Of a stretch of 64,000 nucleotides of DNA, positions 1 to 64,000 are shown in pieces. Source of the DNA: Enterobacter phage CC31; sequence record NC_014662.1; one strand, 5' to 3'. Position 1 is the stretch's first letter. Every line of letters starts with the position of its first letter. The notes below the pieces were generated by a model, which had not been told where the DNA came from, did no database searches, and saw only the letters and a list, made by a program, of their open reading frames with translations. The position numbers and the translations under genes are program-made.

Positions 1-2214
1 TTACTCATCTTCATCTTTACCTTTTAAGGAAGGAGCGCTTTCCAGCGCTCTCATAATACGGGAAATATCATCAGCATAATTAGCTACACGCCATTCGTTT
101 AGCATATGCTCGATGACAGGATATTCTTTCTCAAACTTTTTGAATGCAGCATCTACTTCAGCTGAAGCAGCATCCGTGAGTTTATTATAAATCCGAACAC
201 ATAAAGCTAAATCTTCACGAATCTGTGAAGAACCATCAGGACTTGCCGTGATATAAGTGTTCTTCAGATTGCGTCCGATTTCATTGATACGAGATACTCG
301 CTCACCGTTATCTTTGCCAGTAATGAACTTCAGAAGCCACTTTAACTCAGGAGTATTGATGATGTTACTTACAACACGGCGGTTAAAGAATGTTGATGGC
401 AAATATTCATCAGCATCCAGGTCGTCAATAATCTTGATGAATTCATCAACAATGAAACGGTCCAACGATTCAAGATTATCATTCAATTTAGCAACCTTGG
501 CTGAGTTTGGACGAATAACGTAGAACTCAGTTACGCCCAGTTCTTTAGCCAAAGTTCTGATAGTTTCAATATCAATTCCAGACCAGTACAGCTCTTCAGG
601 GAACGTACGAATCTCATCGCGTGAACGGAAAATTGCATAACCTTCAAGTTCCGCAATATCGTCCTTGTTCATAAATAAGTCTTCAGAAGTCCACCAACCA
701 CCTTTAGCATCTAACTTATGCAATTGGCCGTTCGGAGATTTTGGACGTGGTCCACCATCACCTTTAGATGAGTTTGAGTAATGCTCTTTTTCAAACTTAC
801 GGTATTCTTCCATCTCAGAAGACTTCAGAACAACAACTTCATCTTGGTCAAACAGTTTGATAATTTCATCTTTAATTTCAAGATGTTTAGGGTCTTCTGG
901 GTCAATCATGATAAAACGCTGATATCGGTGGAAGTCTTTCAAATACATTCCACGGAACATTGCTGCGCGGCGAGATGGCTTGTCATCAATCATGATATGA
1001 ACTTTATTCTGCTGAACATTAAGCAGATTTGAAACTGAAGTACGCTTTCTCGTTGACCAAGAACTCGTAAGACGCATACGCTCAGCATCCAGGTTCACAA
1101 GATAAGTGTAAACCATTGAAGACTCAATTTTCTTCTGAAGTTCATTGATGTTATAAGTTTCAACCCATTCGCCATAAGTCTTATCACCAAACATGATGTT
1201 CTGGCGATTCAGAATAGCACGTTGGTTTGAATCAAATTGAGACAGCTGACGAACTAGCTCACGCTTATTCTCAATAGACTGAAGATGTGCAATATCAGCT
1301 TCAAGAGTAGCTTTTTCTAAGCTGTTAACACGTTTCTTGATGTTCTCAATTGTAACATCGTCCAGTGAAAGTTCTTCACGAGATGGAGTGATATCCAATT
1401 CACCCAGAGGGAAATTGACGTAAACACATCCATAACGATTCAGAAGCCAAGAACATTCAAGACCCTGGAATTGGTCAATCGGATAAACAATCTTACCGTA
1501 AACCGCATACAGACCACGAGAATCTTTTCCAAATCCATTAGGAGAATGGAACCACTCTACATCTTGTGGGAAAGAGTCAATGTTAATGCTTGCGCCAGTA
1601 ATGATTGGTTTAACTGGCATTGGACGCATTACATAAGCAATTTCATGCGCAAATTTTTCTACATCTTCAAGACGAACAGGAACCGTAATTTCAATACCAG
1701 TCTGCTCACCTTCTTTCATTGGCTCAACAAACAGAGGACGAATATCAGGTTCACCATTGTTCATCACAGCCATGTAACCACGAGCTTCACCGTCATGATA
1801 AGAAACAATAGTGAAGGACTTAGTGTAGCTGAACGGAGATTTTGAACCAAGACCCAGAGCACCGATGAAATCGTTACTTTCAGCTTTTGTCGAAGCAAAG
1901 TAGCTATTGTACAGACCGGGTTCTTCGTCATTACCACGAATCTGGAAATCACTCATACCAGGACCAAAGTCACGAATAATGAAACGCGGGTCTAACTTAT
2001 TCGGACACTTGATTTCGCATGGAACATCTTGCTTTCCGTTCAGAATGTGAGCATCAAGCCAGTTAGTTGTAAGCTCACGAACAACAGCACGGATTTTGTT
2101 CTTATAGAGCTTATCAGACAAAATCATAAAGGCCTTGGGAGAGGCCTGAATGGTGAACTTAGTTTTCTTACCAGCAGAACCTAAAACTTCTTCATTATCA
2201 GCAATTAATTTCAT
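1..2214 (-). CDS. rIIA: rIIA protein (GHKL-type ATPase-like, membrane-associated)
   Basis: 737-aa ORF; N-terminus matches recalled T4 rIIA motifs (KIRAVVRELxxN, DFGPGMSDF, NSYFxSxKAESNDFIG, GLGSKSPF); ATG at 2212-2214, stop at window edge 1-3. Confidence 0.9.
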   Translation of the reverse strand: MKLIADNEEVLGSAGKKTKFTIQASPKAFMILSDKLYKNKIRAVVRELTTNWLDAHILNGKQDVPCEIKCPNKLDPRFIIRDFGPGMSDFQIRGNDEEPGLYNSYFASTKAESNDFIGALGLGSKSPFSYTKSFTIVSYHDGEARGYMAVMNNGEPDIRPLFVEPMKEGEQTGIEITVPVRLEDVEKFAHEIAYVMRPMPVKPIITGASINIDSFPQDVEWFHSPNGFGKDSRGLYAVYGKIVYPIDQFQGLECSWLLNRYGCVYVNFPLGELDITPSREELSLDDVTIENIKKRVNSLEKATLEADIAHLQSIENKRELVRQLSQFDSNQRAILNRQNIMFGDKTYGEWVETYNINELQKKIESSMVYTYLVNLDAERMRLTSSWSTRKRTSVSNLLNVQQNKVHIMIDDKPSRRAAMFRGMYLKDFHRYQRFIMIDPEDPKHLEIKDEIIKLFDQDEVVVLKSSEMEEYRKFEKEHYSNSSKGDGGPRPKSPNGQLHKLDAKGGWWTSEDLFMNKDDIAELEGYAIFRSRDEIRTFPEELYWSGIDIETIRTLAKELGVTEFYVIRPNSAKVAKLNDNLESLDRFIVDEFIKIIDDLDADEYLPSTFFNRRVVSNIINTPELKWLLKFITGKDNGERVSRINEIGRNLKNTYITASPDGSSQIREDLALCVRIYNKLTDAASAEVDAAFKKFEKEYPVIEHMLNEWRVANYADDISRIMRALESAPSLKGKDEDE

Positions 2215-2944: not shown

Positions 2945-4819
2945 TTATTCGCTCATCCACACTTTACGTGGAGCAGCGTCATCACCCATAACCATTTCGA
3001 AGAGTTCTTTCCAGTTTTCAGGAAGAGAAACTACATCATAATGAGGTTCTTGGATTACTCGCTCATATTCATCTTCTTCCAAAGAACCCAGTCCTTTGAT
3101 GTAACGAAGTTTCCAACCAGCAAGTTCATCTTTTTCCGCTTCATATTCAGCGGCGGTGTAATACCACTTCTGTTTGTCTCCTTTACTCATAATGATAACA
3201 GGAGTTTTGACGAAGCGAATTCGGCCTTCTTCAAACAGACGAGGCCAATTACTGAAGAATGCCAGAAGACTTGGATAGATTGAACCTGTTCCGTCAACAT
3301 CCGCATCTGTCATGATAGCGATGTTTTTGTAGTTCAGATTTTCATAATCTTCACCAATAGTCAATCCAGTGATTGCGCAGATGTCGAAGACCTCTTTGTT
3401 CTTCATTGCTTCTGCTGCGGTCATTCCCCACGTATTCAGGAACTTACCGCGAAGTGGATAACCACCATGAAGTTTACGGTCACGAGTAGTCAGAAGATAA
3501 CCAATTGCAGAATCACCTTCTGTTAAGAACAGAGTGGTTTCTTCTTTATCATTACCATAAAGTTCTGGCTTAATATGTTTAGCAACCTTAGCTTTTGAAG
3601 CAGCTTTTGCAGCTTTAGTTTCAGCAGCTTTTTCTGCCGCCAATTTACGAGCCAGCATAGCTTCAATAATTGGCATATGAATTGCTTCGGACTTCATAAC
3701 TTGTTGAGCAAGTTTTTTGTAGTCCAAGTTCAAATGAGCTTTAACTTCACCCCATGGAGATGTCAGACGTTCTTTAGTCTGAGAATCAAATCGCATGTTG
3801 CTCATATCACGAACGAACATCACGAAAGTAAAACACTCTTTGATACGAGCCTTGTTTACTTCCAGTTTGTACTTACGTTTGAGCATTGGGATGAGTTCAT
3901 TTGACAATTCGTCAACAACCAAATCCACATGAGAACCACCCTTAGAAGTATGGATGTTGTTCACATAAGTCAGTTGGCGGAAACCATCATCTGAACGACC
4001 AATTGCAATTGAACAATTATCTTCATCAGCTACAATAGCTTCTTCATCAAATTGCTTAGCGAATTTCTTGAATCCGCCATTGACTTTTTTGCCTTGGAAT
4101 TTGAATTCAATATCCGGGAATACTACCGCCAGAGTTTGAAGACGGTCCAAAACAATTGATTCATCTACTTCTGTAAGTCCTGAACTTTCAAAGTGACTGA
4201 AGTCAGGAATGAACGATACTCGAGTTCCGGTCTTGGTTTGAATGAACTCTTTTTCCTTTGCTGGCTTACTATCCCAAGAGATATTCTCAGCCCCATTAGA
4301 GCATCGGACGATAATTTCATTCTGGCCGTCACAAGTAGCTCCTGCAAAAGTCACAGAGAAAATATTAGTCAATGCAGAACCAACACCGTTCATACCACCA
4401 GTTTTACGTTCAGCATCATCACCAAAGTTACCACCAGCGCGTGGACGAGTCCAAGCAGCTACTGGTCCAGGAATTTCATCTCCTTCAGGAGTAACTACTG
4501 GAGCTTGTGGAAGACCACGACCATTATCTGTTACGATAACTTTATTGCCTTTAAGCTCAACAGAAATTTTATTTGCAAACTTGAAGTTGGTACGAATTGC
4601 TTCATCGACTGAGTTATCAATGATTTCGTCAATCAGCTTGATTACACCCGGAACGTAAGTTACACTTTGGAATTTACCAAACAGAAAACGTTCGTGAGCT
4701 TCCATAGCTGAAGAGCCGATGTACATACCAGAGCGCTTAATGATATGCTCTCGGTCTGACAGAATTTTAATTTCGTTCTTAATCATCATTTGTCCTCGTT
4801 TAGGTGAACATTCTATCAA
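2945..4819 (-). CDS. 39: DNA topoisomerase II large subunit (GyrB-like ATPase; gp39/gp60-type fused form)
   Basis: 624 aa; N-terminus MIKNEIKILSD...RSGMYIGS and motifs DNGRGLP, GGMNGVGS, EGDSAIGY, IMTDADVDG match recalled T4 gp39 and continue through the gp60-equivalent C-terminus without interruption. Confidence 0.92.
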   Translation of the reverse strand: MIECSPKRGQMMIKNEIKILSDREHIIKRSGMYIGSSAMEAHERFLFGKFQSVTYVPGVIKLIDEIIDNSVDEAIRTNFKFANKISVELKGNKVIVTDNGRGLPQAPVVTPEGDEIPGPVAAWTRPRAGGNFGDDAERKTGGMNGVGSALTNIFSVTFAGATCDGQNEIIVRCSNGAENISWDSKPAKEKEFIQTKTGTRVSFIPDFSHFESSGLTEVDESIVLDRLQTLAVVFPDIEFKFQGKKVNGGFKKFAKQFDEEAIVADEDNCSIAIGRSDDGFRQLTYVNNIHTSKGGSHVDLVVDELSNELIPMLKRKYKLEVNKARIKECFTFVMFVRDMSNMRFDSQTKERLTSPWGEVKAHLNLDYKKLAQQVMKSEAIHMPIIEAMLARKLAAEKAAETKAAKAASKAKVAKHIKPELYGNDKEETTLFLTEGDSAIGYLLTTRDRKLHGGYPLRGKFLNTWGMTAAEAMKNKEVFDICAITGLTIGEDYENLNYKNIAIMTDADVDGTGSIYPSLLAFFSNWPRLFEEGRIRFVKTPVIIMSKGDKQKWYYTAAEYEAEKDELAGWKLRYIKGLGSLEEDEYERVIQEPHYDVVSLPENWKELFEMVMGDDAAPRKVWMSE

Positions 4820-62597: not shown

Positions 62598-62932
62598 GTT
62601 GGCTCCAGAGAAATGACCCTGCGGTCGTAAGTAATTAAGCTTGAAGTTTTGATGCCTTTACATGGGCCAGAGATAAACTCTACTTCAAACCATGGATGCT
62701 CATTCATCAGACCTACATCCGGTGAAGTGCAGAGAAATAATGAACCTTTAAAAGGCCCATCTAAAAATCTATACAGCTTAGGTTCAAGAACTGCACCATC
62801 TGAAAACTTAATATGCAAAATATTAATCAAAGATTCTATATCACATTTTCCGGTAGAGCGCAAGAACCTGATATATTCACTTGTAGTCATTCCAAGAGCC
62901 CGAAGGCCCTTATTAAAATTTTCTTTCATCAT
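62513..62932 (-). CDS. hypothetical protein
   Basis: 139-aa ORF ATGA-coupled to upstream gene; N-terminus is encoded by a degenerate copy of the terminator hairpin, so the start could instead be ATG 62888-62890. Confidence 0.45.
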   Translation of the reverse strand: MMKENFNKGLRALGMTTSEYIRFLRSTGKCDIESLINILHIKFSDGAVLEPKLYRFLDGPFKGSLFLCTSPDVGLMNEHPWFEVEFISGPCKGIKTSSLITYDRRVISLEPTWRKLLSTSPTTWLNLSATGFQTKANKI

Positions 62933-63528
62933 TGCATTCCTATCACAAAGAATAATGGCATCATCTCTTCACCGCTAATGTGTGATTGATGAACACATGC
63001 ATAAAAAGGACCTTTGAAATGAGCTTCGTAGAACTTTTCCATTTCAGGGAGTTTCATTGGTTCTTCTATAATATACAAGATTCTGTTAAGCGTTCGGCCA
63101 CGGGCTTTTGAACCACCATTACTCAAGAAACTTCGCACAGTGTCCATGATAATCATGCGTTTAGCTTCATCTGGATTTGCTTGATGAATGAGTTCTTTCT
63201 CATAACAAGCTCGTATTCTTCTTGCTGTTTCTTCGGAGTTTCGTTGATGGGTGCTAATAATCCAGACAGTTCCACCGTCATGTAACCAGTCCGCTGCAAA
63301 TTCAGCAATAGCTTTAGTTTTACCTGACTGACGCCCGCCGTCGATTTTTAGCGTAGCATATTCGCGTAGAATATCTATAGGAGTGTAATGACTTTCTTTG
63401 AGGATTTCTATACAATCATCTGCGCGGATTTTAAATGCGTGCATCAGGGATAGATATGGAGCAAATAGAGATTTCGTTTTCATAAAGTTACCGTTAGTGA
63501 GGGCCTTCCATGGCTCAAGGATTTCCAT
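62929..63528 (-). CDS. P-loop NTPase-like hypothetical protein
   Basis: 199 aa; Walker A-like GGRQSGKT and hydrophobic-D block IIMDTV; at the position where T4 has denV but unlike DenV. Confidence 0.5.
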   Translation of the reverse strand: MEILEPWKALTNGNFMKTKSLFAPYLSLMHAFKIRADDCIEILKESHYTPIDILREYATLKIDGGRQSGKTKAIAEFAADWLHDGGTVWIISTHQRNSEETARRIRACYEKELIHQANPDEAKRMIIMDTVRSFLSNGGSKARGRTLNRILYIIEEPMKLPEMEKFYEAHFKGPFYACVHQSHISGEEMMPLFFVIGMQ

Positions 63529-63670
63529 CAGCTAGCGGGAGTGCTAGGACCCTGATTGTAACTGGCTTTACCGCACTTGGGCTCGACCTTTTTACAGGTA
63601 CCAGAAGCTACTTCACTCAGAGGACACGACGTTCATGAGGAGAGGTCCAGGTTGGCTTTTTGATTGAAGA

Positions 63671-63967
63671 TTAACTAAACGGGTCGTGGAGCTTATTACC
63701 GACACGACGGAACACTTTAGCTGCAAATTTATTGGAAGGGTTATCAACCATGACTTTGCGCATGTGACCGGTCGCAACTGTTCGAGCAGCCTTATAACCA
63801 GCAATATTATCTTTCAAAGTAATTCGACCTTTTCCTTTAGGGTCATCAATGGTCACTTTGTAAGTTCCCATATCTTCGCCAGGCTTAATTTCTTCAATCC
63901 AGATATAACCACCTGGGACTCGCTTTTGTTCAGCGGCTTCAGTAATAAATTCGTTGTAGGTTTTCAT
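63671..63967 (-). CDS. internal protein (capsid-targeted, IP family)
   Basis: 98 aa; N-terminal MKTYNEFITEA matches T4 internal-protein capsid targeting sequence consensus MKTYQEFIAEA; basic body. Confidence 0.7.
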   Translation of the reverse strand: MKTYNEFITEAAEQKRVPGGYIWIEEIKPGEDMGTYKVTIDDPKGKGRITLKDNIAGYKAARTVATGHMRKVMVDNPSNKFAAKVFRRVGNKLHDPFS

Positions 63968-64000
63968 TTTAATCCTTAGTTGTAAATAGCCTTACCATAA

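Follow-up and report, generated by a model that had tools for sequence, protein, structure and literature searches.

The genome of Enterobacter phage CC31 (NC_014662.1) contains, close to one end of the 64,000-nucleotide (nt) stretch analysed here (the window), a short open reading frame (ORF) for a T4-type internal protein (IP), followed in the direction of transcription by a G+C-rich spacer that leads to the gene vs.8. We consider it probable that these are two adjacent and separate features, an internal protein gene and a functional structured RNA of the minus strand that is made within a read-through transcript. The non-coding element is a structured RNA of the sense strand under strong purifying selection, and its core is modular; this core defines a phage-specific RNA family, which almost all Tevenvirinae, T4 included, carry upstream of vs.8. 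More tentatively, in an assignment that we place just short of an even call, the spacer would be the Tevenvirinae member of an undescribed RNA family restricted to phages, built on a three-way junction of ~45 nt that travels with tRNA genes in unrelated virulent phages.

A conserved structured RNA upstream of vs.8

The conserved non-coding element as a whole spans 187 nt on the minus strand, from the IP stop codon to the vs.8 start codon (63484..63670; G+C 0.497). A preliminary description of this DNA had recognised a spacer of 142 nt (63529..63670) that was richer in G+C than its flanks, without an ORF or an obvious tRNA, and that could encode a small RNA or a structured leader. The compositional contrast is borne out, with a G+C content of 0.507 in the spacer against a mean of 0.397 (standard deviation 0.039) for 142-nt segments across the window, 0.38% of which are equally rich. 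ARAGORN likewise predicts no tRNA or transfer-messenger RNA gene in the whole window, and with Rfam 15 there is no match in the window, either at the gathering threshold or at E<=10, and none at the motif in 20 other loci. The limits of the spacer need correction, as the element extends 45 nt further, to 63484; because vs.8 begins at 63483 (see below), the true non-coding stretch is 63484..63670.

Absence of conservation in related phages, together with the lack of a discrete transcript, had been named beforehand as an observation that would speak against a functional RNA. A blastn search with the spacer finds matches in 401 phage records, where the sequence is almost always unannotated. A core of 80–92 nt is 84–98% identical in Jiaodavirus, Gelderlandvirus, Tegunavirus, Moonvirus, Gaprivervirus-type, and RB69-type phages; the neighbouring vs.8 proteins are just 37–51% identical, and the vs.8 coding DNA 56–60%. 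The element is without exception on the same strand as the genes and is found between the last ip or denV gene and vs.8, with a small IP gene inserted after it in the JD18-type phages.

At the centre of the element is a three-way junction of 43 nt (63562..63604, minus strand), which is closed by helix P1 (CUGGU/AGCCAG). The hairpin P2 (63586..63599, minus strand) has the sequence ACCU-GUAAAA-AGGU in the window and the general form (A/G)CCU-GUAAnA-AGG(U/C), and is stacked directly on P1. A linker on the same strand, CGA in the window and C-N-A in the family, joins P2 to P3 (63573..63582, minus strand; GC-CCAAGU-GC), which in the family is a hairpin of 2–3 base pairs of the form G-N...N'-C, and an invariant GGUAA (63568..63572, minus strand) returns from P3 to P1.

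Comparison of 40 diverse copies reveals compensatory changes in all three helices. The pair that closes P1 (13:46) is AU in 19 copies, UA in 10, CG in six, UG in four, and GC in one; the closing pair of P2 (14:27) is AU in 38 and GC in two; and the second pair of P3 (32:39) is CG in 29, UA in nine, and GC in two. There is not a single unpaired cell at any of these three positions in the 40 sequences, and the covariation score of 0.27, compared with 0.11 in shuffled alignments, was reached by none of 500 shuffles; a set of 54 distinct model matches repeats the pair-count result. Base pairs are thus maintained through compensatory changes in diverged copies more often than in the controls, as is required of a structured RNA. 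Moreover, U-G pairs are seen on the sense strand only; on the opposite strand they would become A-C mismatches, which identifies the sense strand as the functional one.

We have considered whether the conservation could instead reside at the level of DNA or protein, the segment being either a recombination linker at the edge of a gene-shuffling cassette, similar to the PeSL cassettes, or a coding sequence, whether an extension of vs.8 as in T4 or the plus-strand ORF of phage KaAlpha. The gene content does vary exactly at the 5′ edge of the element (denV, ipII, ipIII), the segment is annotated as coding in T4, and one antisense frame is open over most of it in several genera. Two ORFs also overlap the spacer in the window, one of 42 codons on the plus strand (63510..63638) and one of 63 codons on the minus strand, so that the spacer is not free of ORFs as first described; neither is conserved as an ORF in relatives. 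Coding capacity was rejected on both strands, as each frame is broken in at least some genera: there are stop codons inside the invariant core in Melville, TG1, and the phage at locus L014, frame shifts in TG1, L041, and L047, no start codon in JD18, and an upstream ATG in PG7 that is out of frame with vs.8. The compensatory changes that keep the pairs, the restriction of G-U pairs to one strand, and the presence of the core in unrelated phages in quite different gene contexts also argue against these explanations, which we regard as essentially excluded, with only a very slight chance of being correct. The 42-residue 'hypothetical protein' annotated in KaAlpha (KAALPHA_132, L002 3112..3240) is antisense to the element and corresponds to the plus-strand ORF in the window; it is probably spurious.

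Family members, tRNA genes, and flanking domains

Further copies were sought with a loose sequence pattern and then with a covariance model, R1. The model finds a single copy in the window (63554..63612, 64.5 bits, E 2e-16), together with about 110 matches elsewhere: 59 in IMG/VR loci, which score 48.9 bits or more, and 51 in metagenome loci (a TARA ocean contig among them), which score 42 bits or more. A clear gap separates these from the next-best candidates, none of which exceeds 30 bits. Across bacterial and archaeal genomes totalling 596 Gb, the pattern occurs at 24 places, all scoring 24.6 bits or less, and the version of the motif found outside the T4-like phages has no match in 5,426 E. 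coli genomes. The carriers other than T4-like phages include rV5-like Vequintavirinae, 46-kb Klebsiella phages such as KP591P1, a 360-kb jumbo contig, and several lineages with no cultured relatives. Together with the conservation and the covariation, this phage-wide distribution strongly supports the earlier suggestion of a small RNA or structured leader; that the family would include T4 as well as non-T4 phages had not been anticipated, and nor had the 45-nt extension.

Several related patterns were discarded. A second-box pattern, TGTGCCANGGAANGGCC, gives only chance matches outside the T4-like phages, in G+C-rich contigs, and the variants CCTGTAAAAAGGTGGGAATGTTGCGGTAA and ...GGTTGCGTCTAGCATAAGCGGTAA fit the loose pattern but not R1, and were excluded. 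We note also that copies with n = C in the P2 loop (at the window site 63586..63599) share the 10-mer GUAACAAGGU with a universally conserved segment near the decoding site, at the 3′ end of E. coli 16S rRNA (L223 1766..1775), and that a nearby CCUGCGGUU resembles CCUG...GCGGUAA. This is probably a coincidence: R1 scores 6 bits or less on the whole rrn operon, the chance of a 10-mer match is estimated at ~0.1, and mimicry of host rRNA was rejected.

Outside the T4-like phages the motif keeps close company with tRNA genes. Among 68 distinct copies with a non-T4 signature, 35 are in fetched loci that include a tRNA gene; in every one of these (35/35) the motif and the nearest tRNA share a strand, and in 30 of them the two are within 700 nt of each other, with some copies only 25–60 nt after a tRNA or between two tRNAs. 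In the rV5-like locus L118 a sigma-70 promoter (TTGACA-17-TATACT, 11/12) is directly upstream of the motif, which sits between two near-consensus sigma-70 promoters (17..250; 11/12 and 10/12, each with an extended -10 TG) and precedes a tRNA-Arg(UCU) by about 520 nt, a spacing that recurs in related contigs. In a siphovirus-type locus (L121) the motif comes after an endolysin gene, preceded by a weak promoter-like site and followed by a 13-bp terminator, forming a unit of ~175 nt. Tandem copies of the core (L018 5087..5256, L020 9015..9185, L055 824..967, L216 357..527, L253, and L226) are present in several lineages, including relatives of the Karamviruses. In Karamvirus-like contigs the second of the tandem copies has a diverged P3 (GUC...GAC or GCC...GGC), and an unrelated lineage also has two copies.

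The tRNA association raises the alternative that the core is a processing or elongation signal for long, poorly translated transcripts, either as self-cleaving or nuclease-recognised 'punctuation' or as an antiterminator of the HK022 put type. The consistent orientation relative to tRNA genes and frequent spacing of 25–60 nt from a tRNA end would fit this, as would the promoter-proximal position in rV5-like phages, the confinement to phages, and the compactness of a junction with invariant unpaired nucleotides. P2 also resembles the boxB stem of lambda with its purine-rich loop: lambda boxB is GCCCU-GAAAA-AGGGC, and P2 (CCU-GUAAnA-AGG) similarly has a short G-C stem and a purine-rich loop with one variable base. 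Like lambda nut boxB and HK022 put, the motif is a sense-strand RNA element of phages found inside operons. However, the P2 loop has six bases rather than five and is part of a three-way junction, there is no boxA-like partner and no N-like gene nearby, and unlike nut and put the motif is not fixed in position with respect to the genes downstream. Roughly half of the copies follow the nearest tRNA instead of preceding it, and there is no match to a known ribozyme or antiterminator family in Rfam. We therefore regard such a role as quite improbable.

A riboswitch-like function meets a similar difficulty. The core resembles the three-way-junction riboswitches and ribozymes of Rfam (hammerhead, purine, TPP, and others) in its size of ~45 nt, its invariant unpaired junction nucleotides, and its covarying helices, but it has no Rfam counterpart, and the junction sequences C-N-A and GGUAA are not known to fit any riboswitch or ribozyme. 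The gene downstream is vs.8 in the Tevenvirinae and elsewhere tRNA genes or none, and not the consistent gene family that a riboswitch would require.

In the Tevenvirinae the core is embedded in additional elements, all of them on the minus strand. A 5′ hairpin (63614..63640) has an outer stem, CCUCA/UGAG(U)G, that encloses an inner hairpin GAAC...GUCC (63622..63634), the latter retaining GUYC across genera, and a pyrimidine box CCUCUCCUCA (63636..63645) runs into it. This hairpin is nearly invariant; TG1 and the phage at locus L047 have a paired compensatory single-base deletion (CCU-A/U-AG) that keeps the stem, and T4 has a simpler hairpin, CCUCAU/AUGAGG, at the same site. A pseudoknot between GGAC and GUCC in this 5′ domain was rejected, as other genera do not conserve the upstream GGAC. 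A hairpin of Karamvirus type (63532..63547; CUAGC-ACUCCC-GCUAG) is inserted ahead of the 3′ boxes, after the core; it is absent from other genera, and its stem is kept with different sequences in relatives, CCAUC/GAUGG in L018 and CCACC/GGUGG in L020 and L058. A helix P4, which flanks the 3′ boxes, pairs ACAA (in the region 63554..63561) with UUGA (63514..63519) and includes one covarying pair, UA in 14 sequences and AU in two. The 3′ boxes (63503..63529; alignments A1 and A4) consist of an AUGGA box and a hairpin, GCC-AUGGAA-GGC (63503..63514), which takes the form GUGCCA-AGGA-AUGGCC in other genera.

Two GGA motifs are thus conserved just upstream of vs.8 in the Tevenvirinae, one in the AUGGA box and one in the hairpin loop (AUGGAA, or AAGGAA in other genera), and they are reminiscent of CsrA-type binding sites or of a sequestered Shine-Dalgarno sequence. 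The vs.8 start in the window is without a good Shine-Dalgarno sequence of its own. In the CHI14-like Serratia phage lineage (L058 1760..1985) the 5′ hairpin, the core, and the Karamvirus-type hairpin are all kept, and the AUGGA and GCCA-AGGA-UGGC boxes are replaced by unrelated sequence.

This arrangement bears on the possibility that the element serves in cis as a leader or operator of vs.8 and of the genes that follow (vs.7, vs.6, ..., regB), controlling translation, mRNA stability, or read-through, perhaps through a bound protein or ligand. In 38 of 40 vs.8 loci that were fetched independently the core directly precedes vs.8 on the same strand, the 3′ boxes end 20–45 nt ahead of the vs.8 start codon in all genera, and an invariant junction is typical of leaders that bind a ligand or protein. 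No minus-strand promoter or terminator was found in the window element, which does not have the make-up of an independent small RNA gene and, for that reason, is presumably transcribed by read-through; this too would suit a leader. Against it, the core is present in many phages that lack vs.8, in tRNA clusters or in small separate units with no consistent gene downstream, an IP gene intervenes between element and vs.8 in the JD18-type phages, two phages have vs.8 without the element, and the CHI14-like phages keep the core without the 3′ boxes. We consider a leader or operator role of this kind unlikely.

The internal protein gene and local gene order

The window ends in a Karamvirus-like T4-type phage genome, and the 1.1 kb that surround the ORF and spacer are 94% identical to Enterobacter phages SonariX and PG7. 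All local genes are read from the minus strand and are arranged as in T4 (e, IP, vs.8, and vs.7 onwards), and the order e, IP, (denV), vs.8 is common to PG7, KaAlpha, JD18, Melville, TG1, Moon, and T4. Neither the window phage nor KaAlpha has a denV gene; PG7, SonariX, and T4 carry it precisely in the interval from the IP gene to the RNA element (3259..3672 at locus L001), and the equivalent site in the window is the junction 63670/63671 of IP stop codon and element. The genes 5′ of the element are ordered differently by genus, with ipII-denV-ipIII in TG1, and two IP genes before the element and one after it in JD18.

Downstream of the element is a homologue of vs.8 (62929..63483, minus strand), a P-loop NTPase-like protein of 184 residues that matches PHROG 1488 at 1e-69. 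The listed ORF (62929..63528, minus strand; 199 residues) over-extends this gene by 15 codons; the probable start is the second ATG, at 63483 (MKTKSLFAPYLSLMHAF), in agreement with the N-termini of all homologues and with the annotation of PG7. The extra in-frame ATG (63528) falls within the conserved AUGGA box of the RNA. A similar case can be made for T4, in which the annotated vs.8 product (NP_049732, 219 residues) has an extra N-terminal segment, MRDSRQPVIRSSPSAVMGKYRNGQFMCHGMAQTYRAYREE, which is a translation of the RNA element. This segment is also given as MRDSRQPVIRSSPSAV... and MRDSRQPVIRSS...; the element sits within the first ~38 annotated codons, and the T4 copy (L007 2326..2434; NC_000866 ~64,825-64,933) lies inside the annotated vs.8 start. 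At the equivalent position the vs.8 proteins begin with MKTKSLFAPYLSLMHAF in the window, MRTFLTGPYLSLMNAF in T4, and MKYLTPIYLTLMHAF elsewhere; because the homologues begin at the equivalent of MRTFLTGPYLSLMNAF, the annotated T4 start is very probably wrong.

On the other side of the element, the IP gene (63671..63967, minus strand) encodes 98 residues starting with MKTYNEFITEAAEQKR and is the positional counterpart of T4 ipII and ipIII, located between e and denV/vs.8. It is a T4-type internal head protein, bearing a capsid-targeting sequence (CTS), of a distinct conserved family but of a known kind, to judge from its sequence. The CTS, which the preliminary description had correctly picked out, comprises codons 1–10 (63938..63967, minus strand; MKTYNEFITE) and aligns with those of T4 IPI, IPII, and IPIII and of the JD18 and Melville IPs; the N-terminus matches MKTYQEFIAEA of T4 IPII and IPIII at eight of the ten CTS residues. 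Truncation and suppressor studies of T4 IPIII have established that the first 10 residues suffice for head targeting, with residues 4 and 7 involved in targeting and 8 and 10 in cleavage (PMC9026906); the corresponding Y4, F7, I8, and E10 are all retained. Positions 8–10 conform to the gp21 cleavage motif (I/L-x-E followed by a small residue), as I8-T9-E10|A11. Head targeting and cleavage after E10 are accordingly inferred from the identity of the motif and from synteny, and the predicted mature protein would have 88 residues, a mass of 9.8 kDa, and an isoelectric point (pI) of 9.9, close to the 9.6 of mature T4 IPII.

The mature part is a different matter. T4 IPI, IPII, and IPIII share with the window protein a propeptide of the form MKTY(Q/N)EFI(A/T)E|A, a small basic mature product, and the gene position, but differ from it in the mature part, which is only 22–34% identical to theirs in forced alignment and forms its own family, PHROG 3966 (2e-23; function listed there as unknown). 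It has no Pfam family and no sequence match in the PDB. Homologues are 79–97% identical in close relatives and 49–53% in other Tevenvirinae contigs; because identity is 49–97% across several genera, this family is fairly conserved and not hypervariable, as the IP genes had initially been assumed to be. In T4, IPI is an inhibitor of GmrSD and IPIII is required on E. coli ECOR17 (PMC9391042), and these roles are not transferable to the window IP; in particular, the likeness that would mark an IPI-type anti-restriction factor was not found, there being no detectable similarity between the mature part and IPI (22% identity when alignment is forced). An anti-defence role would be plausible. We note an AAGGA at a suitable distance before the IP start codon (window 63954..64000), and that the start overlaps the end of the lysozyme gene e, which runs off the window end, by 14 nt (according to the PG7 annotation), which suggests translational coupling.

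Possible functions of the RNA and the internal protein

We take the two features separately. The CTS MKTYNEFITE would direct the IP to the prohead core, the prohead protease would cut it after E10, and the basic mature protein of 88 residues would be injected with the DNA. For the RNA, the junction core may bind a conserved factor of the cell or of the phage, with the RNA either released, as T4 rnaC and rnaD are from a tRNA precursor, or acting as a stable small RNA; judged from sequence comparisons, this is a possible role, which we would put somewhat short of even. A released, trans-acting stable RNA is favoured because copies of the core are found within tRNA precursors, as mini-genes of their own, and as tandem repeats. 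In the Tevenvirinae, the 3′ extension with its two GGA boxes ahead of the vs.8 start may also have a cis effect on vs.8.

Of the nearest analogues, lambda boxB is alike only in the look of one hairpin, and T4 rnaC and rnaD (species 1 and 2) only in context. The latter are small structured RNAs that lie beside tRNA genes and are co-transcribed with them on the same strand, a context that the non-T4 copies of the motif share. They differ in having tRNA-like 3′ ends, which the junction motif is without, and the T4 copy of the motif is ~6 kb further down, ahead of vs.8. The motif is absent from both sequences, and similarity to rnaC or rnaD was rejected. The neighbourhood of tRNA genes nonetheless ties the family to the old question of the non-tRNA stable RNAs in phage tRNA clusters. 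A further comparison is with the PeSL regulatory cassettes, reportedly described by Arbiol et al. in 2010 at gene-shuffling borders of T4-type genomes. Like these, the element is a conserved intergenic segment at which neighbours (denV and the ip genes) come and go; unlike them, it is without an early promoter in the window, is rich in G+C, has a structure kept by covariation, and is also present in non-T4 phages.

Several observations weigh against our interpretation. The single-sequence fold of the element is no more stable than that of shuffled sequences (z of 0.36 on the minus and -0.01 on the plus strand), an uninformative outcome that the preliminary description had not anticipated. In P1, only 67% of cells pair, and a control slid by +1 scores nearly as high, because the outer pairs of P1 are bulged and their register is ambiguous. 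The sequence of P5 is unvarying, and most Tevenvirinae helices outside the core are invariant; covariation cannot test these flanks, because their sequences hardly vary. The position of copies relative to tRNAs varies (upstream, between, or downstream), and therefore indicates no single cis role. The two most divergent phages with vs.8 have no element, so that vs.8 does not need it; these are T4-like 167-kb contigs (L260 1150..1530, and L262) in which vs.8 is 37% identical, the gap to the preceding ORF is 40 nt, and there is no core in the 3.5 kb fetched. For the IP, the AlphaFold model has a predicted local distance difference test score of 46, too low for use. Finally, word searches of the literature found no description of the RNA, but the motif may stand unnamed among the 10,006 candidate viral RNAs of a published collection (PMC10690425), which was not checked by sequence.

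The IP adds a further conserved and uncharacterised candidate to the 'first-response' proteins injected with phage DNA, and the analysis corrects the vs.8 gene starts in T4 and in the window phage. T4 is the best-studied of phages, yet the element has gone unannotated, being recorded as protein in T4 and as nothing in the other records, and there is no Rfam family for it. If our interpretation is correct, the element would represent a new class of phage non-coding RNA that is directly testable in T4. The ~25 near-invariant nucleotides in phages of different hosts suggest a universal partner or catalysis, and the RNA would then bind or act on a universal component, such as the machinery of translation, of tRNA processing, or of transcription, or a widespread defence nuclease, or would itself be catalytic. 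An RNA that is found almost unchanged in T4-like, rV5-like, Klebsiella, and uncultured marine and gut phages, and in none of the cellular genomes, must on this interpretation serve something general for virulent phages.

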